NCBI RefSeq assembly: GCF_004010195.1
Contig: NC_057749.1
Coordinates: forward strand, 17,184,721-17,204,720
Direction of reading: 5' to 3'
DNA length: 20,000 nt
Origin: Chiloscyllium plagiosum
Lineage: Eukaryota
The position numbers and the translations under genes are program-made. Positions 1,441 to 18,820 of this stretch are shown here, in pieces; the first letter of the stretch is position 1; each line of letters begins with the position of its first letter. Under the pieces are notes generated by a model. The model was not told where the DNA came from. It saw nothing but the letters and a program-made list of their open reading frames with translations, and did no database searches.

Positions 1441-1487
1441 ATTAGTCATTTTGCATCAAACTTGAACAACTTGGTGTTGTTCTTAAA

Positions 1488-2284
1488 ATGGCTAAGGGCA
1501 AAAATTCCCGCAGTTTGCAACAGACAGGGACCCCTCCCCCACTCCCTCCAGCAGCAGTGGAGACGCCCGTGGCCGCCTCAGGGGACTTACCTGCGGAGGC
1601 GAGCCTGATCTCCAGGATCAACAAGCTGCAGGAGAAGATCGATGCCTTCATTGAAGAATCCAGGACCAGGTGGGAGTTGTTGAAAACCTTGAACAGCGCG
1701 ACAGAGGGGCAGAGCAAAAGGCCGCGGCCTTGGAGACTCCTGCTGAGTCAACCGTGGGCCAGATCCAGGCTCTCGAGCAGTGAATCTGGACCGTGGAAGA
1801 GCACATTGGTGACCTCGACAATCGGGGCTGTCGAAAAAATATTCGGTTGCTGGGCCTTCCCGAACATGAAGAGGAAGGCCACCCTGTAGACTTTCTGAAG
1901 CAATGGCTCCCTCAAATATTAAAGTTGGAGTCTGGATCAGGCCAGGTACAGGTGCAGGCCTGGGTCAGACCAGTGCCCCCGCCCAGTTCTGTTCTGGCTC
2001 CAATGTTATAGAGAGAAGCAGATGTTCCTGGAAGCCTCAAAGTCCTGGGGAAGGATCCTCAGGCCATGGTGCACAAGGATTCCAGAATTATGTTATTCCA
2101 GGAATTTTCTCCAGACGTGGTCTGCAAGAGGAGGGCATTCGATGAGGCGAAAAAGTGTCTAAGAGACCTAAATATCCAACACACTATGTGTTACCCAGCA
2201 ATGCTGCGCTTCAGCTTCGAAGGATCCATATATAACTTTGGATCACCGGAGAAGGCTAAAGAATTCTTGGACTCTAGACTGTGA
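1488..2284 (+). pseudogene. L1 ORF1p (coiled-coil, RRM, CTD; Transposase_22-like), frameshifted
   Basis: MAKGKNSR... start; DLDNRGCRKNIRLLGLPE (ENRxRRxNIRIxGLPE motif); RIMLFQEFSPDVVCKRRAF...YPAMLRFSFEGSIYNFGSPEKAKEFL. Split over three frames. Confidence 0.9.
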
Positions 2285-5200
2285 GACTTAAACCGTATGG
2301 ATGACGATTTTATTTTGCTGCCCCCCCCCCCCCCACCAAACCTGGTTTACCCTTTTTTCCTTTTTCATCTTTTTTTCATTACCTTCCCTCATTACCTTCC
2401 CCCCTCCCCACCCCCCGGGCTTATTTGTTATTTGCTATGTGATTTTTATTTTACAGGTCGTGCGGCTTATTCGATTTGTGTGGGAGAGGGGTTTGTTTTG
2501 TTCTACCTTTTTACTAGAGCAGGGTTTTCTTCTTTCATTTTACTTAGTTTTCTAATAATTGCTAGCATTGTAACTTTGTAGTTTTATATATTTATATTTT
2601 GTATTATGCTTGCTAAATACACCTAGGTGTGGGTGGGGGGGTGGTTGGGTCACTCACTTTTAATTTTGGTTTCATAGAGCACTCGAATTTGTCTACTCTA
2701 TTTTATACTGCCTGGGTCGAGGGTGGGACACTAGTTAGGAGAGCTTACAGTAAGGTTATTGACAGGTAGTTAGTTACTCCTCCTGGGAGCAAGGGGGAAA
2801 ATCACCTTTCAAATGTGTTTTGTATTGTTTTCTTCACTTAGGAATAGTTTTTAGTTGTGTTGGTGTAAATGTCTTACAGAAGTTTTGCTTTTGTGAGTTT
2901 TCCATGGTCTTTATTCAAGGTGTTTTGGATGGGGTTCTTCCTCCTGGGGGAATCTCGGGCTTGCCTGGATGATCATGACTAGCCATTTGCTTAGGTGGGG
3001 CACCTGAAATGTCAAGGGAAGTAATTCACCAATCAAAAAGATTGGTGAATTATCAAACGTCAAAAAAGAAAGGGTTGATATAGCTCTCTTACAAGAGACA
3101 CATCTACTTGACAAAGAACACTTAAAATTACAACAGGGTGGGTTTGACCAGGCTTTTTTCTCATCTTTTAGTTCAGAAAGTAGGGGAGTAGTCATTCTCA
3201 TTTGGAAGAATCTTCCTTTCAAAATCTTAAGCCAAATAAAGGTGAGTCTGGACGGTATATACTGATCAAAGCCCTAATATACGGAATTTTGAAACTTTAT
3301 TGCCCCCCGGCACACCCCTTCAAATTTGTAGCGGAAGCGTTCTCTAAGTTGATGGTTTTTTGGGGCCCGCCATACAATTATAGGAGGAGATTTTAATTGT
3401 ATTATGAACTCAGAGACAGATAGGATACCTAAGAGTACTGTGGGTATATCTCTCAGATCTAGACAATTGGAGGATCTGAATAAGGAGCTAGGGCTAGTAG
3501 ATGTGTGGAGATGTCTTCACCCCCAGGGCAGAGACTTTACTTTCTACTCAAATCCACGCAAGTGTCATACTAGAACTGATATGTTCTTTGCTCCCTCGAC
3601 CCTTTTGAATTCCATATTGTCCTGCAAAATAGGTAATATAGCAATCTCTGATCATGCCGCAGTATATATGAAAGTTAAGACTAGGGACGATGGGACAGGC
3701 CCCCGCCATTGGCATATGGATAGCAAATTTATAAAATATTTTTCTCAGGAACTCAAAACCTTTTTGGAAATAATTCAGGCACGGCCAGTAACCCATAGAT
3801 GATGTGGGAGTCCATTAAGGCTTATGCGCGAGGTTTGATCATCTCATAGTCTGTGACCCAGAAAAGACAAAAGGGAGAACAACAGTGCCTGCTCGAGGCT
3901 TGCTTGAAGGCCGCTGAGACAGCGTATGTTGATAGGTCCTCCGTTACTAAGCTACAAAGGATCACAGCCCTTAGGACAGCCTTGAATATCGCACTTACAC
4001 AAACAGCAAAGAGGGAAATATTATTTGCAAAGCAAAGATTATATGAATATGGTGACAAGCCTGGCAGTTACCTAGCATACCTTGCTAGGAAAAAAAAAGG
4101 CTCCTCAAGCTATCACTTCCATTAGGGAACGTGCTGGTACTCTGACTTGTGATTGTAAAAGGATCAATACAGTCTTTAGAAAGTTCTATTTTGAACTGTA
4201 TAAATCGCAGGACTGTGAGGATAGAACTAAGAAGATGGAGTCCTTCTTCAAAAACTTGGCCTTTCCAGATCTAACCTTGGAACAGGTGTCTTTCCTGAAT
4301 GCTTCCCCTGACAACCTAGGAAGTATTCAATGCAATTAGACAGCTTCAGAGTGGCAAAGCACCTGGACCAGATGGATTCCAGGTTGAGTTTTACAAAGAA
4401 TTTATAGGGGGACTGGCTAGTCCACTTATAAACATGTATAATCGCTCACATAGTCAGGACTGCCTCCCGCCTTCGTTGAGAGAAGCAAATATTTCTCTCA
4501 CTCTTAAAAAAGGGAAGGTCCCAGAAGATTGTTCAAAATATAGACCAATATCCTTGCTAAATGTAGATTTTAAAATCCTTTCTAAAACATTAGCATTAAA
4601 ATTGGAGAATGTCTTACCATATATCATAAAAGTGGACCGGACGGGGTTTATCAAGGGCCATAGATAAACTAACAATATTAGAAGGGTCTTAAATATGAAA
4701 CAAGCCTGTCAACAGGGAAGAATACCAGGGCTAGTTGTCTCCTTGGATGCAGAGAAGGCATTTGATTGGGTAGAGTGTTCATAGCTTTTTTACACATTGG
4801 AAAGGTTCGGTATTGGAGAGGTATTTTCTAAATGGGTCTCAATATGATACAATGACCCCAAAGCAGCTGTGATCACCAATGGTTTCGGCTTGGATAGCTT
4901 CAGTGTTGGTAGGGGCTGTCGTCGGGGATGTCCTCTCTGTGTTACTATTCACTTTAGTAATCGAACCACTAGCTGAAGCTATATGAACCTACTCTAACAT
5001 AGCGGCTCCAAGAGTTGGTTCGGGTAAATATAAATCACTCTCTATGCAGGTGATGTCCTCCTTTTCTTAAGTAATCCTTTGATATCCATGCCCTGCTTAA
5101 TTCAAGTTGTCAATCTGTTTAGTATGTTCTCAGGCTATAAAATCAATTTTATGAAATTGGAGACCATGCCGTTGGGTAGTCTCGTCAATATATCCAATTT

Positions 5201-5791
5201 ATCGGATGGATCTTGTTTTCTCTTTCTGTGGTCACTGGAGGGTTTTCTATACTTAGGTATTTTTATCACCCCAGTATTTGGTCAGCTGTATAAAGCCAAT
5301 TTTGTACACCTATTAGAGAAAATAAGGCAGGACCTTCAACACTGGGAAGATCTCCCAACATCTTGGTTAGGCAGAGTAGCTCTAGTTAAAATTAATATTC
5401 TGCCTGGTCTCCTATATCCTATAAGAATGCTCCCTCTGATGTTGCCGAGACTGGCGTTGCGTAAGCTATACGGCTGGCTTGGTTCCTTTATTTGGAATCA
5501 TAGACGGCCTCTAATCAAATTTGAAAAGCTGCAGCTTCTAACAAGTACTGGATTTTCTAGACTTCAGGAAGTATCAGTTGAGCTCTTTATTATGCTATAT
5601 AGCTGATTGGGTCTCTTGTGACCCTCAATCAATTTGGCTAGACATTGAGACCTCCCAAGCAAAATGTCCCCTCATCAATCTTTTATTTTTAGATAAGATG
5701 AGAGCTATTGCAAAAACAATTAAAATTGCAAATACAATTAAAGCCTGGAGGATAATGTGGCAAGATGAGGGTAACCTACAAAAAACCTCTC

Positions 5792-6359
5792 GACTACTGC
5801 GACCCCTAGGACTCATAACGGCACACAAACCAACAGCCACGCTCCGACAACAACTGACCAGAACGAAGGACCCGATACCCAACATGAGCAAGACGAATGT
5901 AGTGTACAAAATACCATGCAAGGACTGCACTAAACACTATATAGGACAAACAGGAAGACAGCTAACAATCCGCATACATGAACATCAACTAGCCACGAAA
6001 CGACACGACCAGCTATCCTTAGTAGCCACACATGCAGACAACAAGCAACATGAATTCGACTGGGACAACACTACTATCATAGGGCAAGCCAGACAGAGAA
6101 CAGCCAGGGAATTCCTAGAGGCATGGCATTCATCCACAAACTCCATCAACAAACACATCGACCTGGACCCAATATACCAACCACTACAGCGGACAGCTGA
6201 AACTGGCAACCGGAAGCGGCAGGGACAGACCACTATAAACACCGGAGGAAACATCAAAGAAGCGCTTCGCAGGAGGCTCCCAAGCACTGATGATGTCGCC
6301 TAGCCAGGGGACGAAACGTTTGCAACAAAAACTTCCAGCTCGGCGAACAGAACTACAAC
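5792..6359 (+). mobile_element. Penelope-like element, 5'-truncated: GIY-YIG endonuclease domain plus pLTR, with 8-bp TSD AACCTCTC
   Basis: Uninterrupted NVVYKIPCKDCTKHYIGQTGRQLTIRIHEH...REFLEAWHS..SINKHIDLDPIY. AACCTCTC occurs at 5784-5791 and 6360-6367. Excising the insert restores the L1 frame (NLQKTSPYTPIVGASGFQPG). Confidence 0.93.
6284..6323 (+). ncRNA. Minimal type I hammerhead ribozyme motif in the PLE pLTR, core apparently intact
   Basis: GCA-CTGATGA-T-GTC(GCCTAGCCAGGG)GAC-GAAA-CG-TT-TGC. Helix I GCA/TGC, helix II GTC/GAC plus CCT/AGG, palindromic AACGTT in place of helix III. Predicted cleavage after GUU (6320). Confidence 0.82.
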
Positions 6360-7374
6360 AACCTCTCCTTATACTCCTATAGTGGGAGCATCAGGTTTTC
6401 AGCCAGGGCTGACAGATGCTGCATTTAAAACCTGGAGGTCCAGAGGTATCTCCTGCTTGGGGGACATGTTCGATAGGGAGATTATGATGTCTTTTGAGCA
6501 GTTGCATCAGAAGTTTGGACTGCCTAATGGAGATCTTTTTCGGTATTTCCAAATATGAGATTATATACAGAAGAAGACCACATTATTAGACAGTCCCTAC
6601 AAATCGGATAGGGAAAGAAGAGTGCTATGGCCAATGGGGCCACCCTTGGTCAGTACTCTTTATCACTTATTATATAATGAGGTATCAAAAGACATGGAAC
6701 GACTGTTTAAAACATAGAACCAAGAATTGGGGTTAGAAATCTCGTTAGAAATGTGGGAGGGCATCTGGGAAAATGCCAGAAAGATCTCTATTTGTAATAG
6801 ATCTCAAGCTATTCAATTAAAGATACTCCATAGGGCTCATATAGCACCTGAACGACTGACAAGATTTAAGGTAGGAACATCCCCAATGTATCCTAAATGC
6901 AAAATAGAAGTGGGCACTCTCACGCACTGTCTATGAACATGTCACAAGATCTGAAGGTACTGGGACAGGGTAGCGAATGCTCTGACAGAGATCTTGGGAA
7001 CGGAGATTAGATTGGATCCAGTGTCTCCTCTTCTGGGCTTTTCAAATTTCCCCCCCACCCATCCCGGATGTGCACGGGAGGAAATTATTTTCCATTCTCT
7101 CCTTTTGTGCAAGGAAATATATCTTAGTGAATTGGGTAGCTGAAGGCCCTCGAATTGGCACAGGTTAATCATGGAATATATCCTCCTTGACTTCCTCACA
7201 AATATGGTGCACCAAAAAACTGAATTATTCCATAAAATATGGCAGCCCTTTCTGAACTATATCGACACCGATATTTCAGCCATACTGTCAAGGGCTTTTT
7301 GTCTGGCTGTGGTAGTGGTTCTGGCTGGTTTGGGGCCCCTGGGAGGAGGAGTCCCATATAAATACAGGTTTTAT

Positions 7375-7522
7375 TATGACTTGATGTTAATTCATTTTGA
7401 GTATGTACTTATTTAATTATTCCGTTATTTTTCGCAAGTAATGTATGATATGACTTGATGTTAATTCATTTTGAGTATGTACTTATTTAATTATTCCGTT
7501 ATTTTTCGCAAGTAATGTATGA
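7375..7522. repeat. Tandem duplication, 2 x 74 bp, in the L1 3' UTR
   Basis: TATGACTTGATGTTAATTC...CGCAAGTAATGTATGA at 7375-7448 and 7449-7522; the copies look identical by eye. Confidence 0.95.
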
Positions 7523-7633
7523 TATCCTATTTTACGTTTTGGTTGTTTGTAGGATAGATTAGTAGTTAGTTGGATTTTTTTCCTTTTTTTGGTGTTTTGG
7601 TTATTATTTATTTTTTTTTCTCATTTATTTAAT

Positions 7634-7896
7634 TGTATATTAGTGTTTATACTTGTTTGTATTACTTCATAATTTTGTGAAAAAAAGTTTTTTTAAAGAT
7701 TTCCTTTTTTTCCATTAAAGTACCTATTAAAACAGCATCTTCTCAATTGTCTTTTCTCTAATCTCTGTATATTAGTGTTTATACTTGTTTGTATTACTTC
7801 GTAATTTTGTGAAAAAAAGTTTTTTAAAGATTTCCTTTTTTTCCATTAAAGTACCTATTAAAACAGCATCTTCTCAATTGTCTTTTCTCTAATCTC
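7634..7896. repeat. Tandem duplication, 132/131 bp, spanning the L1 3' end and flank
   Basis: TGTATATTAGTG...CTCTAATCTC at 7634-7765 and 7766-7896. The copies differ by one substitution (cttcat/cttcgt) and one T in a homopolymer. Confidence 0.95.
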
Positions 7897-8146: not shown

Positions 8147-9215
8147 GATATTTTTCATCAGTATTCACACAGGAAAAAGACACTTGTCGAGGAGAACACT
8201 GAGATATAGGCTATTAGACTAGATGGGATCGAAGTTCATAAGGTGTTAGCAATTCTGGAAAATGTGAAAATAGGTAAATCCCATGGGCCGGATGGGATTT
8301 ATCCTAAAATTCTCTGGGCATCTACAGAGGAGCTTGCAGAGCCTTTGGCTTTGATCTTTATGTTGTCATTGTCTACAGGAACAGTGCCAGAAGACTGGAG
8401 GATAGCAAATGTTGTTCCCTTGTTCCAGAAAGGGAGTAAGGACAACCCTGGTAGTTATTGACCAGGGAGCCATACTTGGTTGTGGGCAAAGTTTTGGAAA
8501 GGCTTATAAGAGGATTTATAATCATCTAGGAATAATTTGATTAGGGATATTCAGCATGGTTTTGTGAAGGGCAGGTGGTGCCTCACAAACCTTTATTGAG
8601 TTATTTGAGATGGTGACCAAACAGGTGGATGAGAGTGATGTATGTATGGATTTCAGTAAAGTTCTTGATAAGGTATACCATGGTAGGCTATTGTAGAAAA
8701 TACAGATGCATGGGATTGAGGGTGATTTAGTGGTTTGGATCAGAAATTGGCTAGCTGAAAGAAGACAGAGGGTGGTGGTTGATGGGAAATGTTCATCCTG
8801 GAGTTCAACTACTAGTGGTGTAGCAACAATGACCTGTTTTTGGGCTACTGCTGTTTGTCAGTTTTATAAATGACCTGGATGTGGGCGTAGAAGGATGGGT
8901 TAGTGAATTTGCAGATGACATTAAGATCAGTGGAGTTTTGGACATTGTGGAAGAATGTTGCAAGTTACAGAGGAACATAGATAAGCTGCAAAGCTGGACT
9001 GAGAGGTGGCAAATGGGGTTTAATGTGGAAAAGTGTGAGGTGATTCACTTTGGAAGGAGTAACAGGAATGCAGTGTACTGGGCTAATGTTAAGATTCTTG
9101 GTAATGTGGATGAGCAGAGAGATCTGAGTCCATGTGCATAGATCCCTGAAAGTTGCCACCCAGGTTGGTAGGGTTGTTAAGAAGGCGTACGATATGTTCA
9201 GTTTTATTGGTAGAG
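8147..9215 (+). mobile_element. CR1 LINE copy A, 5' portion of RT region, decayed
   Basis: FSSVFTQEK, KSHGPDGIYPKIL, VPEDWRIANVVPLFQKG, QHGFVKGR, EFADDIKI, WQMGFNVEKCEVIHFG. Confidence 0.9.
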
Positions 9216-9793
9216 TCAGTTTTATTGATAGAGATGTACAGCATGGAAACCGACCCTTTGGTCCAACTTGACCATGCCGACCAGAGATCCCAGCTCAATC
9301 TAGTCCAACCTGCCAATACCCGGCCCATATCCCTCCAAACCCTTCCTATTCATATACTCATCCAGATGCCTTTTAAATGCTGCAATTGTAGTAGCCTCCA
9401 CCACTTCCTCTGGCTGCTCATTCCATATACGTACCACCCTCTGCGTGAAAATGTTGCCCCTTAGGTCCCTTTTATATCTTTCCCCTTTCACCCTAAACCT
9501 ATGCCCAGTAGTTCTGAACTCCCGCACCCTAGGGAAGAGATTTTGTCCATGCCGTTCATGATTTTATAAGCCTTTTAGGTCACCTCTCAACCTCTGACAC
9601 TCCAGGGAAAACAGCCCCAGCCTATTCAACCTCTCCCTGTAACTGAAATTCTCTAACCCTGACAACATCCTTGTCAATATTTTCTGAACTCTTCCAAGTT
9701 TCACAACATCCTTCTGATAGGAAGGAGACCAGAATTGCATGGAATATTCCAAAAGTGGCCTAACCAATGTTATGTACAACCGCAACATGACCT
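9216..9793 (-). mobile_element. CR1 LINE copy B, 3' end with (CTCTATGA)-type tail, nested in copy A
   Basis: LYITLVRPLLEYSMQFWSP, SYRERLNRLGLFSLE, RTTGHRFRVKGERYKRDLRGNIFTQRVVRIWN. Closely matches the reverse complement of 18166-18820. Confidence 0.92.
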
Positions 9794-10925
9794 GAGGTTT
9801 CTAAACATGAGGTTTCTAAATTCTTGGAAGAGGAGAGTCGGATTAGAACAAGTCAACATGGATTTAGTAAGTGGAGGTCGTGCCTGACAAACCTGTTGGA
9901 ATTCTTTGAAGAGGTGACAAGTAGGTTAGACCTGGGAAACCCAGTGGATGTGGTCTATCTAGACTTCCAAAAGGCCTTTGATAAGGTGCCACACGGGAGG
10001 CTGCTGAGCAAGGTGAGGACCCATGGTGTTCGAGGTGAGCTACTGGTATGGATTGAGGATTGGCTGTCTGACAGAAGGCAGAGAGTTGGGAATAAAAGGT
10101 TCTTTTTCGGAATGGCAGCCAGTGACAAGCGGNNNNNNNNNNNNNNNNNNNNNNNNNNNNNNNNNNNNNNNNNNNNNNNNNNNNNNNNNNNNNNNNNNNN
10201 NNNNNNNNNNNNNNNNNNNNNNNNNNNNNNNNNNNNNNNNNNNNNNNNNNNNNNNNNNNNNNNNNNNNNNNNNNNNNNNNNNNNNNNNNNNNNNNNNNNN
10301 NNNNNNNNNNNNNNNNNNNNNNNNNNNNNNNNNNNNNNNNNNNNNNNNNNNNNNNNNNNNNNNNNNNNNNNNNNNNNNNNNNNNNNNNNNNNNNNNNNNN
10401 NNNNNNNNNNNNNNNNNNNNNNNNNNNNNNNNNNNNNNNNNNNNNNNNNNNNNNNNNNNNNNNNNNNNNNNNNNNNNNNNNNNNNNNNNNNNNNNNNNNN
10501 NNNNNNNNNNNNNNNNNNNNNNNNNNNNNNNNNNNNNNNNNNNNNNNNNNNNNNNNNNNNNNNNNNNNNNNNNNNNNNNNNNNNNNNNNNNNNNNNNNNN
10601 NNNNNCTGTTAGGCGAGGAGACTAGGACCCATGGACACAGCCTTAGAATTAGAGGGGGTAAATTCAGAACAGAAATGTGGAGACATTTCTTCAGCCAGAG
10701 AGTGGTGGGCCTGTGGAATTCATTGCCGCAGAGTGCAGTGGAGGCCAGGATGCCAAATGTCTTCAAGGCAGAGATTGATAAATTCTTGATGTCACAAGGA
10801 ATTAAGGGCTACGGGGAGAATTCCGGTAAGTGGAGTTGAAATGCCCATCAGCTATGATTGAATGGTAGAGTGGACTCGATGGGCCGAATGGCCTTACTTC
10901 CACTCCTATGTCTTATGGTCTTATG
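9794..10925 (+). mobile_element. CR1 LINE copy C (different subfamily), 5'-truncated, nested in copy B, spans the N gap
   Basis: SQHGFSKWRSCLTNLLEFFEEVT, VYLDFQKAFDKVPH before the gap. ETRTHGHSLRIRG...FFSQRVVGLWNSLP and a TCTTATGG-repeat tail after it. GACCT is duplicated at 9789-9793 and 10926-10930. Confidence 0.88.
10133..10605. other. Assembly gap (473 N)
   Basis: Run of N; ORFs crossing it are artefacts. Confidence 1.
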
Positions 10926-12578
10926 GACCTCCCAACTCCTGTATTCAGTACTCTGACCAATAAAGGAAAGCATACCAAACGTTGCCTTCACTATCCTATC
11001 TATCTGCAACTCCACTTTCAAGGAGCTATGAACATGCACTCCAAGGTTCAGCAACACTCCCGATGACCTTACCATTAAGTGTATAAGTCCTGCTAAGATT
11101 TGCTTTCCCAAAATGCAGCACCTTGCATTTATCTAAATTAAATTCCATCTGCCAGTCCTCAGCCCATTGTCCCCATGGTCAAGATCCCGTTATAATCTGT
11201 AACCTTCTTCGCTGTCCAGTCCACTTCCAATTTTGATGTCATCTGCAAACTTACTAACTATATCTCTTATGCTTATATCCAAATCATTTATATAAATGAT
11301 GAAAAATAGAGGACCCAGCACCGATCCTTGTGGCACTCCACTGGTCACAGGCCACCAGTCTGAAAAACAACCCTCCACTGCCACCCTCTGTCTTCTATCT
11401 TTGAGCCAGTTCTGTATCTCAATGGCTAGTTCTCCCTGTATTCCATGAGATCTAACCTTACTAACCAGTCTCACATGGGGAACCTTGTCAAATGCCTTAT
11501 TGAAGTCCATATAGATCACGTCCACTGCTTTGCCCTCATCAGTCCTCTTTGTTACTACTTCAAAAAAGTCAATCAAGTTTGTGAGACATGATTTCCCATG
11601 CACCAAGCCACGTTGGCTATCACTAATCAGTCCTTGCCTTTCCAAATATATGTACATCCTGTCCCTCAGGATTCCCCCAACAACTTTCCCACCACCAAGG
11701 TCAGGCACACTGGTCTATAGTTCCCTGGCTTCTCCTTACCACCCTTCTTAAACAGTGGCACTATGTTAGCCAACCTCCATTCTTCCGGCACCTCACCTGT
11801 GACTGTTGATGATACAAATATCTCAGCAAGGGACCCAGCAATCACTTCCCTAGCTTCCCACAGAGTTCTAGGTTAGGTCCTGGGGATTTATCCACTTTTA
11901 TGCATTTCAAGACATCCAGCACTTCCTCCTCTGTAATATGGACATTTTTCAAGCTGTCACCATCTATTTCCCCACATTCTATACCTTCCATGTCCTTTTC
12001 CACAGTAAACACTGATGCAAAATACTCGTTTAGTATCTCCCCCATTTCTTGCGGATCCACACAAAGGCCACCTTGCTGATCTTTGAGGTGCTCAATTTGC
12101 TTCCTAGTTACCCTTTTGTCCTTAATGTATTTGTAAAAACCCTTTGGATTTTCCTTAATTCTATTTGCCAATGCTATCTCATGTCCCTTTTTTGCCATTC
12201 TGAATCCCCTCTTAAGTATACTCCTACCACCTTTATACCCTTCTAAGGATTGATCCGATCTATTTTGTCTATACCTGACACATGCATCCTTCTTTTTCTT
12301 AACCAAACCCTCAATTTCTTTCGTCATCCAGCATTCCTAATACCTGCTAGCATTTCCTTTCACCCTAGGAGAAAGTGAGGACTGCAGATGCTGGAGATCA
12401 GCTTCTTCGGGCATGAAGAAGGGCTCATGCCCGAAACGTCGATTCTCCCGCTCCTTGGATGCTGCCTGACCTGCTGCGCTTTTCCAGCAACACATTTTCA
12501 GTTCCTTTCACCCTAACAGGAATATGCTGTCTCTGGACTCTCATTATCTCATTTCTGAAGGCTTCCCATTTTCCAGCC
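10926..12578 (-). mobile_element. CR1 LINE copy B, RT core and upstream portion
   Basis: IKENPKGFYKYIK, LNEYFASVFTVE, DKSPGP, KSCLTNL, YMDFNKAFDKVPH, SGVPQGSVLGPLFFIIYINDL, KFADDIKI. Joins seamlessly to 9793 (catgacct|cccaactcc). Confidence 0.93.
12368..12501. mobile_element. 134-bp non-coding PLE-type mini-element with hammerhead remnant and 14-bp TSD
   Basis: TTCCTTTCACCCTA at 12354-12367 and 12502-12515. Starts GGAGAAAGTGAGGACTGCA like 17929-18111. Contains (A)TGAAGA-A-GGGC-TCAT-GCCC-GAAA-CG-TC-GATTC at ~12413-12445. Confidence 0.88.
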
Positions 12579-13116
12579 AGGGGATTGTGTTTCAGAGCCA
12601 TGAGGTCACGTTGCAGCTGTACAAACTCTGGTGCGGCCGCATTTGGAGTATTGCGTACAGTTCTGGTCACCGCATTATGGGATGGATATGGAAGCATTGG
12701 AAAGGGTGCAGAGGAGATTTACCAGGATGTTGCTGGTATGGAGGAAAGGCTGATGGACCTGAGGCTGTTTTCGTTAGAAGAAGGTTGAGAGGGGATTTAA
12801 TAGATATACAAGATGGTCAGAGGATTAGACAGGGTGGACAGTGAAAACCTTTCTTCCTCGGATAGGGATGGCTAGCGCAACATAGTTTAAATTGAGGGGT
12901 GATAAGATGTCGGACAGATGTTAGAGGTAGTTTCTTTACTCAGAGTAGTAAGGGTGTGGAATGCGCTGCCTGCAACAGTAGTAGATTCATCAACTTTAAG
13001 AGCATTTAAATGGATATTGGATAAATATATGGATGATAATGGAATGGTGTCGGTTATGTGGGCTTCAGATTGGTTTCGCAGTTCAGTGCAACATTACTAT
13101 ACTGTAATGTTCTCTG
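12579..13116 (+). mobile_element. CR1 LINE copy A, 3' end (resumes after the nested insertions)
   Basis: Continues 9215 (ttttattggtagag|ggattg...gagccatgaggtca). LQLYK, RPHLEYC, RVVRVWNALPATVVDS, then a CR1-type tail ctgtaatgttct. Confidence 0.85.
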
Positions 13117-14529
13117 ATACTTTCGTCGAGTTCAGACATTCAATATGTATTAAAATGTGTAAAATTATTCTGTTCATCTTGAGAATCAACTAAATCATCC
13201 TAGTTTGTTTCTTGAATGTTATCATTAGCCATATCATTCCACGTCTTCAATGCCATCAAGTGTTTTGAATATCCCATGTTTCTTGAATGACTTGACATTT
13301 TCCATTTTGATTTCAGACCAGGCTTCAATTCACTTAGTCAGGATTGCTAATGTTGGAGCATGTATGCTGCTTACCTTAAATGTGTAATAATTTTCTTAAT
13401 TCAAGGTGAAGATTTGGAAAACTTATCAAAACTGACAGTCCATTAATATTATCTTTGATTGATGTAACTTTTGACAACTTGCTTAACTTTGCTTTGTCTC
13501 CGTATTCATTCTCAGATGTCTGCTTAAGCTTTGAAGAGAATGCTATCCATTCTCTAACATTTTTCTCTGATACCTTGCAATCTGTGACTGTGTGCAAATT
13601 TTGGTTTGTTCTGCAATTTCAATGATTTTAAGTTTGAACAGGGCTGTGTATATACCATAGCTTGGTGCCAACTTGCCATAGTAGAGGGTGCGATTGGCAG
13701 CAAAACTGTGCACACCAGTGTACATGATAGGCTTGATGTCAAACATTGATTGACAGACACAGAAAACTGAACAGCTGCCTTCAGTGGTGTGCTGTTCTAG
13801 AATTCTATCAAGCCAGCTTATTTGGGGTGAATTAGACTTTTGTGAGTGGGTGATAAATGCAAAGAGTTTGGATTTTTTCCTTTTAAAAGTTGGGGTTGAC
13901 CTGTACACACTGTATATGAAAAATGAATGTTTCTTTTGTCAGAGGTTCAGCGTTGGCTTTTACACCAGATTAGTCATTACTTGAGTCCGTATGATTGTGA
14001 TGATGCAATAAACTGCATTCTTCCTTGTTTTTAAAAAGAATTGACTGTAATTCAAACTTTTCCCTAAAATGTGGCCATTTCAGTACAAAGAATGGTTAGA
14101 AGCATCGTATCTGTATTAGTCATTTGTATCCTTGAGGGTGAAATTTAATGACTGAAAGCATTTTGGCAATGGGTAATGAAATTTCTGGAATCCATGTGCA
14201 CTGACATGACTGGTTTATTACTGTTGCTGTATTATTTTGAGGGATGGATGAAACTGGATGTATGTTTCTCCTTTGGCCTGACTTTTACCAGGTTTTTAAG
14301 TTGATATGCTTTTGTTCTATGACTGTCATGTATAACGGGCACAAAGACTGCAGTGGTCTGTATGGTGGATAGAGTTTCTGGATAGAAATTTTAAGTGTTC
14401 TGCTGTATTATAGAATACAATATTTGTTGCAACAGATATTATCTTTTTCAATTGACTCTTTAATGGCCTCCAGACCCATCATTGTTTCGTAAAAGGTTTA
14501 AAATTGATCATGACAATCGTAATGTCGTA

Positions 14530-14644
14530 ATTTAATGGACGTACATGGAATAGTGTAGGTGGGATGGACTTCAGATTAGTATGACAGGGTGGTGCAACAT
14601 CGAGGGCTGAAGGGCCTGTACTGCGCTGTTATGTTCTATGTTCT
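14530..14644 (+). mobile_element. Short CR1 3'-terminal fragment
   Basis: gcaacatcgagggctgaagggcctgtactgcgctgttatgttctatgttct: CR1 3' stem-loop and (ATGTTCT) tail, similar to 13040-13116. Confidence 0.8.
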
Positions 14645-15214
14645 CAAATCGCTTGCAAGCTCCCTGTCTTCATCGCCATTCGTCGTCAGTCCTATCCTGG
14701 ATGTAATGCTTTGTTCTTTTACACAGATAACCCTACAAAAGAAAGCAAGGTTTATTTGGCTTGAGTTGTTTGGTTCTAATAAAATTATTACCCCTTTAAG
14801 TGTCTACCCTCTGTTTCAAAGTGCATAATTTGGTAGTGATGGATTCTTGGGCATTTGGTCGATTGCAGTCTACATTCAACTTTGCATTTTGAGAAAAGTT
14901 GACCATGTATTGTCTCGATGTGACTAGCAAAATACAACGATGCAGCAGTTTCTCAATTCTATGTCAAGTCAAAAGTTGGGACATGATTAGTTTCCTGAAT
15001 TGGAGTTATGAATACTGCCAATTGAGCCACTTTAGAGTGTAGTCAGGTCTTGTCGAGGCCACAGTACAGGCAACATTTACTTTTAAGAAGTGAATTCATG
15101 CATACTGTTTGGGATACTGTCGTTAGTGTATTTCAAATTTCCCTATTTCTTTGCTGTTGTGTTATTATTTTTGCTCTGCATCCAAGATTTCTGCAGACTG
15201 ATTCAGTTAATGCA

Positions 15215-15279
15215 TTTGGCCTGACTGAGAATTTTGAATTTCTTTGGTCTGACTGAGAATTTTTAATTTCTTTGGTCTG
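15215..15279. repeat. 28-bp minisatellite, ~2.3 copies, with a degenerate extra unit near 15298-15330
   Basis: TTTGG(C/T)CTGACTGAGAATTTT(G/T)AATTTC at 15215 and 15243, partial at 15271. Confidence 0.85.
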
Positions 15280-15494
15280 TTTAACTTTGTTCATGCGTTT
15301 GGTGTGGTCATGAATTTTGAGTTCTTTGGTTAGTTTAATTCCTTTTGATGAATTGATGACTAATCGGTTCTATGAAAATGCAAAATAAAAATGCAAGTCA
15401 TATAATTTCAGAAAGATAATGGAGAGCCTGGACCTGACTGGTAGAAGGAGTACTTCTGGTTAAAGGTTAATGGTGCATTTGTTGTTTTTTGCAG

Positions 15495-16293
15495 TTCATT
15501 GGGTGGAAGTGCATCCACAGAGTTGTTTGGAAAGGTGTTCCAGGATTTTGACCAAGCAAAAGTGAAGGAAATGTGATTTACTCCAGGTCAGGATTGTCTG
15601 TGAGTTGGAGAGGAACTGACAGATGTTGATGTTCCCATGCTTCTGGTCCCCCTGTCCTTCTGGAAAGTAGAAGCTGTGGGTTTGGAGTGTTCTGTCTGAG
15701 GAATCTTTAGAGTTACTTACTGAATCTTGTAAATAGTACATATGCTCCGTGTTGAAGGGGTGAGTTTTGAAAGTCATGAATGGGTTACAAATCAAGTGGG
15801 TTGATTTTTTTTCTGGTGGTGTCAGGCGGCTTGAATAATGTGGGAGCTGCCTCCATCTAGGGAAAGTGAAGTATTCCATCTCAGTTCTGACTTTTACCTT
15901 TTGTAGGTGGTGGAGGCTTTGAAGAGACAAGAGATGCTGTTGAATTCATAGCCTCTGACCTAACGACAGTATTTGTGTGACTTCCAGTCCAATTTCTGGT
16001 TAGTCGTAACCTACAGGATGTTGATAATGGGTAGTTCAACAATAGTAATATCACTGAATTTCAGTGGACAATAATTATGTTCTCCCATTGGAGATGATTA
16101 TTGCCTGGCATTGTGCAATTTGAATATTATATGCCACTTGTCAGCCCAAGCTTGGATGCTATCCAGCTATGGCTGCATTTGGACACAGATTGCATCAGTA
16201 TTTGCAGAGTTGCGAATGATGTCAAGCATTGCACAGTCATCATTGAATGCTCCCACCTCTGGCTTTGTGATGAAGAAAAGGTTATCGATGAAC
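15495..16293 (-). mobile_element. Ancient CR1-group (Zenon/L2-like) LINE, RT C-terminal remnant
   Basis: Minus strand: FIDNLFFITKPEVGAFNDDC (FINDL...FADDC), IQAWADKWH, KVKVRTEMEY (KAQVRSxMEY), SKSWNTFPN. Heavily decayed. Confidence 0.75.
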
Positions 16294-16756
16294 ATTTATT
16301 TGCTCCAATTGAATGCTGTTTAAATTCTATTTGATTTGATTACCCAAAAGCTGTAACCCTGTTTGTTTTGCAGTTTTAATTTAAAGAAGTTGGAGCATTT
16401 ATTTGAGCTTGCTTTGAAGTTGCATAACTAGAATAGTATTTTCTGCTTCATTCAAAAGTATACTTTTTTCAGTCCTGAGTTATACATTTGGTCAGAAACT
16501 GTTTGTACAGTAGATTATCGATATTTCAAATGCAGTTCTTTAATTATTTACAACAAAACCATAATATGATCAACATGACTATCTTTCATTTAGCTGCCTT
16601 AGATTTGGATTGATTATTTTTGCCTGGATAATAATAGTTAGGTTTAAAACATGTGATGCATGTAAAGAGCAATAAAAAATTTATAGAGTGACTTTAACAT
16701 TGTAAAATATCTCAAGGCTCTAAAACATGGGATATTAGAAAAATAGTGCATCGAGC

Positions 16757-16870
16757 TAAAGATTGAACACATGTACCAACAGGTTCAAGAACAGCTTCTT
16801 CCTTGCTGTTATTAAACTGTTGAATGCACCTCTCTAATTTCAAATCTAATGTTGATCTTGTTTTTCTGCA
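16757..16870 (+). mobile_element. Rex1/Babar LINE 3'-terminal fragment
   Basis: From 16763 it reads LNTCTNRFKNSFFLAVIKLLNAPL*, homologous to the C-terminus encoded at 1-88 (minus). Confidence 0.75.
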
Positions 16871-16917
16871 ATTGTATTCAGATCCATATGACAATAAATC
16901 AAATCACATCAAAACTT

Positions 16918-17090
16918 GGGCAGATGACCAAAAGCTTTGACAAGGTAGTTTGTTTTAAGGAGTGCCTTAAAAGAGGGCAACTAAACGTTAAGGTTTTTGG
17001 CGGAAATTCCAGAGCTCAAGGCCCAGGAAGCTGAAGGAAATGGCCAACAATGATGAATAATAACAATGATGCTGGAATGGCCAGAATTAT
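16918..17090 (-). mobile_element. L2 LINE 3'-end remnant
   Basis: tgaccaaaagcttt...gttttaagga...gaaattccagagc...aggaagctgaagg is the antisense of the L2 end (AFS...P.LWN...LKT..F..AF). Confidence 0.6.
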
Positions 17091-17928
17091 AAAAGTCTTA
17101 ACTCTTTGTGTATTGGGTTTTCCAACTGAGCTTTAATAACAAGAAACTAAAGCCTTGAAACTCTTAATTCTTATTCATTGGAAATTAGGTTGTCTTTGAA
17201 GAATGTTTTTGGATTTGTACAATGCCAGCGTGTTGGAGTGAGTGGCACAATTTGAGATATCCAGGAAAAAGCCTACCAGCATTTCAGAACCTTAGGTTGG
17301 TGTTACTTTTGAAAGTCCGTATGGACCAAATATATGCACTGAAAATGCCACCCTGTATTGATAAAGAAATCATCATTTCGGTAACTTAGATGACTTCTCT
17401 TTACTCTTGGAAAATGTTTACCATATATAAGTCTGCACTTGTTGCACCCCTGCAGAAACCTCAAGTCAGGAACTTAATACACTGTATGTTGTCTTGTGGT
17501 TTGTCATTAATTGCTTCTATGAATAGTTCAGCTCTGTCTTTAGGTAGCTGTTTATATCTCCACCTTCACTCAGGTTTTTCACATTATGAATGATTTATTT
17601 CAAGTGTTGCTGTTTTGTAAATGTGAGTGTTTACAACCTGGAAGTTCTGTTGCTGAGAAGTGGTTTCCTGCTTCTTTTCTCAGTGCTGCAGGCTGTTTAT
17701 ACTCCGTTAAATGTTAAGTATAAGCTTGTCATGGCTGCAAAATAATTGAATTCAAAAGGGAGATTCAGAGAGGTAGTGCGTTCTTGGGGTGCTTCAATAC
17801 TGATAATCCAAAGAAAATTTAGGTGATTTGGTGGTGAATCAAACTTTTCTGAGGGAGGTTGGAATAATTTGAGCAGTAATGCTTGAGATTCACGTGCAAA
17901 GTTTCTTCCAAAATTGTCATAGTTTTAA

Positions 17929-18111
17929 GGAGGAGAAAGTGAGGACTGCATGTGGTGAAGATCAGAGTCGAGAGTGTGGTGCTGGGAAAGCACAGCAGGT
18001 CAAGCAGCATTCGAGGAGCAGGAGAATCGATGTTTCGGGCAGAGGCCTTCATCAGGATTCCTCAGATGCTGCCTGACTTGCTTAGCTTTTCCAGCACCAC
18101 ACACTCGACTC
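17929..18111. mobile_element. 183-bp non-coding fold-back PLE-type mini-element with 13-bp TSD
   Basis: GTCATAGTTTTAA at 17916-17928 and 18112-18124. Imperfect 53-bp inverted arms at 17965-18017 and 18059-18111. Same family as 12368-12501. Confidence 0.9.
18024..18060 (-). ncRNA. Minimal hammerhead ribozyme motif, partly decayed
   Basis: Minus strand: GAATC-CTGATGA-A-GGCCTCTGCCC-GAAA-CA-TC-GATTC. Perfect 5-bp helix I and full core; helix II is weakened and CG>CA occurs in the helix III palindrome. Confidence 0.75.
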
Positions 18112-18165
18112 GTCATAGTTTTAACCCTACTCCATGGGTGATTTTTTTTTTGGTATACGTTTGAT

Positions 18166-18820
18166 TAAAAAAGTAGAGTCACAGGTAGTTAGGATAGTGA
18201 AGAAGGCGTTTAGTATGCTTTCCTTTATTGGTCACCATATTGAGTACAGGAGTTGGGATGTCATTGTACGGCTGTGCAGGACATTGGTTAGGCCACTTTT
18301 GGAATATTGCGTGCAATTCTGGTCTCCTTCCTATCAGAAGGATGTTGTGAAACTTGAAAAGGATTCAGAAAAGATCGACAAAAATGTTGCCACGGTTGGA
18401 GGTTTTGAGCTATAGGGAGAGGCTGAATAGGCTGGAGCTGTTTTCCCTGGAGCGTTGAAGCTGAGGCGTGCTCTTATAGAGGTTTATAAAATCATGATGG
18501 TATAGATAGGATAAATAGACAACGTCTTTTCTCTGGGGTGGGGGAGTTCAGAACTGGAGGGCATAGGTTTAGTGTGAGGGGGGAAAGATATAAAAGAGAT
18601 CTAAGGGACAACTTTTTCACACACAGGGTGGTGCGTGTATGGAATGAGCTGCCAGAGGAAGTGGTGGAGGCAATTAAAAGGCATCTGAGTGGGTATATGA
18701 ATGGGAAGGGTTTGGAGGGATATGGGCCAGGTGGGACTAGATTGGTTTGGGATATCTGGTCAGCATGGACGGGTTGGACCGAAGGGTCTGTTTCCGTGCT
18801 GTACATCTCTATGACTCTAT
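18166..18820 (+). mobile_element. CR1 LINE 3' fragment (same subfamily as copy B)
   Basis: VKKAFSMLSFIG, TLVRPLLEYCVQFWSP, RTGGHRFSVRGERYKRDLRDNFFTHRVVRVWNELP; ends CTCTATGACTCTAT. Confidence 0.93.

Follow-up and report, generated by a model that had tools for sequence, protein, structure and literature searches.

Two short non-coding insertions in the Chiloscyllium plagiosum genome are probably end pieces of a Penelope-like element

Two short insertions lie between exact target-site duplications

Within a 20,000-nucleotide stretch of the genome of the shark Chiloscyllium plagiosum (assembly GCF_004010195.1, contig NC_057749.1, positions 17,184,721 to 17,204,720; hereafter the window), two short insertions, copy 1 (134 bp, 12368-12501) and copy 2 (183 bp, 17929-18111), are built from parts of one repeat unit whose membership of the Penelope-like elements (PLEs) is supported by its architecture and its hammerhead signature, as read from the sequence. 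An earlier note made from the DNA letters had described the two insertions as independent, with exact and mutually unrelated target-site duplications (TSDs) of 14 and 13 bp, and this description was upheld by a repeat search with a shuffle null. The window holds five exact direct repeats of at least 13 nt at 100-300 nt spacing, two of which are the TSDs of copies 1 and 2, while the remaining three belong to a local tandem duplication (7634-7896); in 200 block shuffles such repeats averaged 0.165, with at most 2 in any one. Inspection of the sequence and its frames agreed with the note that neither copy has an open reading frame (ORF) of its own or a poly(A) tail, the crossing frames of at least 80 amino acids being stop-to-stop frames that enter from the flanks. 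A BLAST search of the window for further copies was negative. The A+T content of the two TSDs is 57% and 77% (n = 2).

The sequence that hosts copy 1 is the frame of a CR1-like long interspersed nuclear element (LINE), which allowed an empty-site test. When copy 1 was removed together with exactly one TSD, a single alignment crossed the site in four of eight relatives, without gaps for P0003 and P0004 and with one gap for P0005 and P0007; P0006 also crosses the site, with a gap elsewhere, and the remaining three relatives end too near to it. As a control, both TSDs were either kept or removed. With P0003, P0004 and P0006 the match then fell apart into two segments that lie in different frames, and with P0005 and P0007 it became shorter. 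Because removal of one TSD alone restores the alignment of the CR1-like frame, copy 1 is a true insertion with a 14-bp TSD. For copy 2 we turned to reads from four runs (DNA of organisms A, B and C, and one RNA run) mapped on 17850-18190 at 80% likeness. The left junction of copy 2 was found in organism B and the right junction in organism C, so that copy 2 predates the split of these two organisms; today 8 of 53 positions are mismatched between its two arms.

Each copy joins a tailed and a tail-less arm head to head

Positions in the unit are numbered from the predicted hammerhead cut, with +1 at 18028 (minus strand) or 12441 (plus strand), and the parts of both copies are listed in Table 1. 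In each copy, one outer end extends through a 34-36-nt tail (to +97..+100), the opposite end halts immediately before this tail (+61..+64), and in each an inverted, truncated arm is joined head to head to the direct arm; more fold-back joints of this kind occur in the read data. The common left end that the earlier note had proposed stands as an exact 19-mer (12368-12386 = 17932-17950; 20 nt counting the preceding A), but the ends are not identical, as copy 2 has three extra bases ahead of it. The final 3 bases of the copy 1 TSD also fit the outer end of the family, which makes the boundary ambiguous by up to 3 nt; this match is a possible priming microhomology.

Table 1. Parts of the two insertions, and a second PLE fragment in the window
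Feature	Coordinates	Strand	Remarks
Copy 1 left TSD, 14 bp	12354..12367		last 3 bases fit unit +98..+100
Copy 1 direct arm, tail only (unit +64..+97)	12368..12401	-	31/35 identical to copy 2 tail
Copy 1 junction filler, 12 nt	12402..12413	-	8 bases are a snap-back copy of the helix II/GAAA region
Copy 1 inverted tail-less arm (unit -27..+61), 88 nt	12414..12501	+	
Hammerhead remnant in copy 1 inverted arm	12414-12440	+	predicted cut after 12440
Copy 1 right TSD, 14 bp	12502..12515		empty-site test
Copy 2 left TSD, 13 bp	17916..17928		
Copy 2 tail, 36 nt (unit +65..+100)	17929..17964	-	two outermost bases unlike family consensus
Copy 2 direct arm body (unit +64 to about -30)	17965..18058	-	ends 2-4 nt upstream of C3
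Decayed minimal hammerhead in copy 2 direct arm	18029-18055	-	predicted cut between 18029 and 18028
Copy 2 inverted tail-less arm (unit +12..+64)	18059..18111	+	45/53 identical to direct arm
Copy 2 right TSD, 13 bp	18112..18124		
Second PLE 3' fragment, 568 bp	5792-6359	+	GIY-YIG-like frame, minimal hammerhead, 8-bp TSD

The note had also read an antisense and a sense copy of one unit in each insertion. This applies to copy 2, a real fold-back of 53 nt whose inverted arm lies wholly inside the span of the direct arm, but not to copy 1, in which the arms are adjacent, non-overlapping parts of the unit separated by a 2-nt gap: one is the tail and the other the 88 nt upstream of the tail. The only true inverted repeat in copy 1 is an 11-bp repeat at the junction (12406-12416 / 12425-12435), which includes a 3-nt overlap with the inverted arm. 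The direct arm of copy 2 folds no better than shuffled sequences (z 0.06), and no tRNA-like head was found. The outer end of the unit (12365-12385, minus strand) resembles a 3' splice acceptor, with a pyrimidine run followed by TAG, which may be chance; introns are possible in the pseudo-long terminal repeats (pLTRs) of PLEs.

Short, non-coding, abundant and partly palindromic repeats could also be the remains of a DNA transposon with terminal inverted repeats, similar to miniature inverted-repeat transposable elements (MITEs). This explanation is contradicted by the asymmetric ends, since the termini are not inverted copies of each other and only one carries the tail. The TSDs, moreover, are unlike in both length and sequence, the internal junction is variable, and the hammerhead signature is of the PLE type, so we consider a MITE-like origin barely credible.

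The family consensus carries a PLE-type hammerhead signature, and its templates were uncut

Neither copy in the window contains a complete hammerhead motif, which does not bear out the full CTGANGA-A-stem-GAAA-CG-TC motif that the earlier note had read in both. Copy 1 has an A in place of C3 and lacks the 5' strand of helix I. In copy 2, helix II has lost one nucleotide, which leaves two contiguous pairs, and the sequence reads GAAA-CA-TC rather than GAAA-CG-TC, a CpG-type change that breaks the helix-III palindrome; the apparent helix I of 6 bp in this copy is built with letters of the junction. Rfam models detected no hammerhead, whether run on the window or on each copy, and the sub-threshold rows for the two copies (4 and 8; glmS, microRNA (miRNA), CITE) were unrelated and put down to chance. 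Two pattern scans were likewise unproductive: the first gave no loci in viral contigs and none in metagenomes, and the second gave 4 metagenome and 3 genome loci (the latter titled Algoriphagus) that we took as chance, the one locus of the seven that was inspected (L001) having unrelated flanks.

At the level of the family, the read consensuses at 18041, 18059 and 18065 do carry the core boxes, together with the other features of the minimal type-I hammerhead ribozyme (min-HHR) of PLE terminal repeats: the extra base, a helix II with a G-C closing pair, and palindromic 15.2/16.2. The C at 18031 that restores the palindrome makes up 45%, 46% and 26% of the depth in the DNA runs and is present in 647 of 985 RNA reads. 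The consensuses vary in the loop of helix II and not in its stem, which makes them uninformative on covariation, and they give a native helix I of two pairs, a mismatch and one pair. Like the min-HHRs of PLE pLTRs, the unit thus shows in its consensus the core boxes, the extra base before helix II, the closing pair and the palindrome, and it occurs as dispersed solo or opposite-strand copies; passages of PMC4209133 attribute min-HHR pairs on opposite strands to truncated PLEs. Unlike them, it has a helix II of 4 bp rather than 7-8 and, by the read consensus, a native helix I of about 2 bp against 4-5, and both copies in the window are defective. No shark example of a min-HHR was found in the text and two supplementary files of PMC4209133.

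No arm boundary falls at the predicted cut. The arms that reach the hammerhead extend beyond the cut and take in the core, and the biggest loose-end class among those listed (593, 615 and 715 contigs) likewise reads across both, from which it follows that the templates were uncut at the hammerhead. Hammerhead mutants of an anole PLE are reported to insert normally in the parts of PMC11167929 that deal with them.

These boundaries bear directly on one of the two options of the earlier note, a ribozyme-processed retroelement, which is not supported. We also weighed a retrozyme-like element, in which a monomeric or circular RNA released by the hammerhead is reverse-transcribed and inserted. The minimal type-I signature of the consensus would suit such an element, as would the non-LTR retrozymes, which are described as pLTR-derived and as present in the one chondrichthyan sampled (bioRxiv 10.64898/2026.07.22.740005, in part). 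The shark copies resemble these retrozymes in being non-coding and pLTR-related, with a type-I hammerhead and in a shark lineage; unlike the head-to-tail tandems with complete hammerheads described in portions of that work (Li, Clavereau and Pollet 2026), each is a lone head-to-head insert that is flanked by TSDs and bears a broken motif. Neither copy contains tandem units, the turn-arounds fall at many positions and none at the cut, and the native helix I has only two pairs and one more. For copies 1 and 2 a retrozyme origin is thus largely refuted, and we consider it very unlikely.

Reads define a fixed outer end and a highly repeated unit

The unit is highly repeated, with 33,042, 35,280 and 43,093 contig pieces in organisms A, B and C, which are pieces and not copy numbers. 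The joints and loose ends described here are those listed (15 of 84 and 12 of 80 joints; 24 of 940 loose ends), and rows at 18041-18042, which reflect the divergence of copy 2 itself, were excluded from the junctions. The outer end at 17931 is fixed, and the flanks that adjoin it are unrelated (446, 437 and 353 contigs in the three DNA runs; agreement 0.33-0.35), their consensuses being AT-rich and of low agreement. The tail follows the tail-less end (+64) within the unit, as indicated by opposite-strand joints 17950/18111 in 5, 8 and 10 contigs, and the subfamily of copy 1 continues into the tail (161-read RNA consensus, place 17967). Among the joints listed, the direct arm is left at 17980, 17983, 17991, 17994, 18000, 18009, 18010 and 18025 (+49 to +4). 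The class of loose ends at 18102 contains arms both with and without the tail; its consensus breaks down near +64 in organism B and further on in A and C.

Of 12,955,460 RNA records, 2,631 matched the unit, in both orientations, and 99% of these continue into unlike sequence, which fits passive carriage in host transcripts. No peak of RNA starts or ends was found in this run, a poly(A) single-cell library of which about 2% was read and which is blind to small or circular RNA. The depth of RNA reads over the body of the unit is about 1.7 times that over the tail, a weak signal that local divergence can bias. At place 17933 of run X21, 174 RNA reads have one common flank (agreement 0.87), which suggests that one strongly expressed transcript includes a copy of the unit.

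The copies are best explained as two-end-primed end pieces of a PLE

The connection to PLEs that the earlier note had drawn is supported by the minimal-hammerhead signature, by an arm that is both inverted and truncated, by a tail of 30-40 nt confined to one end, by TSDs that vary and by the lack of poly(A). Endonuclease-containing (EN+) PLEs have an inverted, 5'-truncated copy beside the pLTR and a tail of 30-40 bp at one end, as set out in sections of Craig et al. (2021, PMC8557442). Like these complex insertions, both shark copies combine head-to-head arms, a one-sided tail of 34-36 nt, a TSD and no poly(A) with strong truncation and a junction hairpin; unlike them, they have no ORF remnant at all, and the arms of copy 1 do not overlap. 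The relevant parts of Arkhipova et al. (2013, PMC3846280) likewise describe the inverted truncated copy and the one-sided tail; they give TSDs of 8-10 bp for Adineta PLEs, and report an inverted pLTR that is 37 bp shorter and comes with a TSD. The TSDs of the shark copies, at 13-14 bp, are longer than these and than the 8-bp TSD of the PLE fragment at 5792-6359, although two cases do not make a family trait. In PAc, a Poseidon element of Anolis carolinensis, two start sites of the reverse transcriptase (RT) bound the tail, both strands are extended and cleavage by the hammerhead is dispensable, according to portions of Frangieh et al. (2024, PMC11167929). The shark copies resemble PAc in having two ends a tail-length apart downstream of the hammerhead, templates uncut at the hammerhead, and apparent use of both target strands; they differ in belonging to another sequence family and in that copy 1 has up to 3 nt of match between target and template at the distal end, whereas priming by PAc is reported to be non-homologous.

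We consider it probable, at roughly 70%, that both inserts are dead-on-arrival, ORF-less end pieces (pLTR and tail) of an abundant EN+ PLE that were primed from both ends of the target. The 13-14-nt duplications would reflect a staggered cut of that width, presumably made by the GIY-YIG endonuclease of a PLE. One DNA end would then prime the RT at the distal start site (about +97..+100) and give the tailed direct arm, and the other end would prime about 36 nt upstream, at the proximal site (+61..+64), and yield the inverted arm that lacks the tail. Both end positions are seen in the copies, and the two priming events are modelled on the anole biochemistry. Both complementary DNAs (cDNAs) would stop at or before 130 nt and be joined head to head at a variable point, probably by end-joining and sometimes with snap-back filler such as that present in copy 1, after which gap filling would produce the TSD. 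The hammerhead would be carried along as part of the pLTR, on a template not cut there.

The filler of copy 1 resembles polymerase-theta snap-back fillers. A further parallel is L1, whose 5' inversions Ostertag and Kazazian reportedly ascribed to twin priming in 2001. Copy 1 is similar in that its TSD encloses a direct 3' piece and, separated by a tiny gap, the neighbouring upstream piece in inverted orientation; the unit differs in that its second priming site looks fixed (the tail boundary), there is no poly(A) and the arms of copy 2 overlap.

The inverted-arm step could instead have come about by self-priming, in which the nascent strand folds back and the asymmetry of the tail arises when the endonuclease resolves the product, a scheme that would replace this step only and is compatible with a PLE origin. 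The inverted arm of copy 2 lies wholly inside the direct arm, copy 1 has a hairpin at its junction, and the self-priming model proposed in parts of Arkhipova et al. (2013, PMC3846280) was itself built on palindromic head-to-head junctions. Copy 2 in fact fits two-end priming and self-priming alike. In copy 1, however, most of the 88-nt inverted arm is missing from the direct arm, so that self-priming would need a later deletion of about 68 nt that ended by chance at +64, the tail boundary; the anole protein, moreover, extends both target strands in vitro (PMC11167929, in part). Copy 1 thus favours two separate cDNAs over a simple fold-back, as a single case that was noticed post hoc, and we regard self-priming as rather improbable.

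Clustered arm ends raise the question of the template

Several observations weigh against two-end priming of randomly truncated PLE ends. All three readable arms that reach the hammerhead (two in the window and one from the reads) end within about 4 nt of the upstream edge of the core, a clustering that suggests a fixed RNA start and not random truncation. The tail-less end gives no clean peak, the class at 18102 being mixed; the overlapping arms of copy 2 need two templates, re-copying or self-priming; and no more than two complete copies, each with both of its TSDs, were observed. In addition, protein searches (two frames in large searches) tied no RT/GIY-YIG ORF to the unit, and the terminal repeat of the PLE fragment at 5792-6359 is unlike the unit, with no BLAST match and 22/45 over the hammerhead.

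We tentatively entertain, at well under even odds, that the short copies arose by run-off from an RNA whose start lies a few bases ahead of the core, with programmed double priming at the distal and proximal RT start sites. The template would then be either a dedicated RNA that consists of the pLTR only or the 5' end of a PLE transcript, and copy 1 would be a twin-primed product of a single RNA and copy 2 a two-RNA (dimer) product.

A related possibility is a separate, non-autonomous pLTR-only element, in which ORF-less masters yield a short RNA, about 130 nt in length and beginning shortly before the core, which a PLE protein mobilises in trans; the insertion chemistry would be that of two-end priming and only the source would differ. 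The three arm ends within about 4 nt of C3 are what such an element predicts, the loose-end consensus at 18041 diverges between runs soon past the core, and the failure to tie an ORF to the unit points the same way. Portions of the literature add that pLTRs are enough in cis for trans-mobilisation (PMC3846280) and that non-autonomous PLE derivatives exist (PMC8557442). The clustering is no proof of masters, however, as a full-length PLE transcript would give the same short product by run-off at its 5' pLTR. Three of the four DNA-run consensuses at 18036-18041 keep common letters 9-12 nt upstream of the core, so some copies continue upstream of it, and no begin or end peak was found in the RNA, although the poly(A) single-cell library is a poor test. 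We hold a separate pLTR-only element to be unlikely.

No parent element was found, and a second PLE fragment lies nearby

The earlier note had offered extreme PLE truncation as the other of its two options. Truncation is the better fit of the two, but no link to an ORF was found that would establish a continuum of copies up to a full PLE. The first translated frame gave 2 candidates and 0 matches, and the 2 matches of the second were both unrelated tandem-repeat proteins. When 45 PLE-type proteins were compared with both copies, only short matches at chance level appeared (best E 0.005 in a tiny search), and a weak gapped match of the copy 1 translation to an RT stretch (E 0.016-0.7) was taken as chance. 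Shark repeats of the unit's type presumably lie downstream of Neptune-clade GIY-YIG ORFs.

The PLE fragment at 5792-6359, which we take by resemblance to be of Penelope/Poseidon type, shows that an RT/GIY-YIG PLE family is present in the host genome, and many of its 45 relatives carry RT. Its frame scores below the Pfam cut-off for GIY-YIG (15 vs 22.6 bits) and ends inside an intact-looking minimal hammerhead (about 6287-6323), followed by about 39 nt. The fragment has no inverted arm and is flanked by an 8-bp TSD (5784-5791 / 6360-6367) in an L1-like frame that reads through once the insert is removed. It matches Chiloscyllium punctatum and Hemiscyllium ocellatum at 89-90%, and other pieces of the window match other cartilaginous fishes. 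Because its terminal repeat differs, the fragment is an unlikely partner of the unit. Pieces of the Penelope-type endonuclease frame, 70-90% identical, also occur in the shark isoforms P0018, P0024 and P0036 (MAP3K7, a 5'-nucleotidase-domain protein and CUEDC2), where they are the result of exonisation or an annotation artefact.

Several nested CR1-like LINE fragments on both strands (8225-13034 and 18170-18708) are the source of long, distant inverted repeats. One of their relatives, P0004, is a CR1-like RT labelled Carnobacterium maltaromaticum (3-kb contig) and 57% identical to the LINE piece in the window; it is probably host contamination of a bacterial assembly. A long, decayed element at about 1450-7400 (plus strand) is L1-like, a class inferred from ORF translations. 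After it come tandem duplications of 74 and 131 bp (7375-7525, 7634-7896), both near-perfect, which could be recent or a feature of the assembly. A 28-bp tandem repeat (2.3 copies) lies at 15215-15279.

Significance

The architecture, the motif and the likely mechanism of these insertions are already described for PLEs, while the shark family itself is undescribed in the literature that we found: the search gave no account of it, nor did the supplement of PMC11167929, although Dfam, Repbase, subscription journals and some supplements lay outside the search and may hold it. How the tandem or inverted structure and the one-sided tail of PLEs are formed is called undefined in a section of PMC8557442, and the in vitro work in PMC11167929 leaves second-strand steps open in the portion that treats them. 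Repeats of this type can be mis-annotated as short interspersed nuclear elements (SINEs), MITEs, miRNA hairpins or retrozymes. Minimal inserts that consist of the two ends only are the cleanest natural readout of PLE insertion, of modest value in that the class is known, and the non-overlapping arms of copy 1 are hard to reconcile with a simple fold-back. If double priming is indeed programmed, the shark genome would hold a very large natural record of it, in which self-priming and two-end priming could be told apart.

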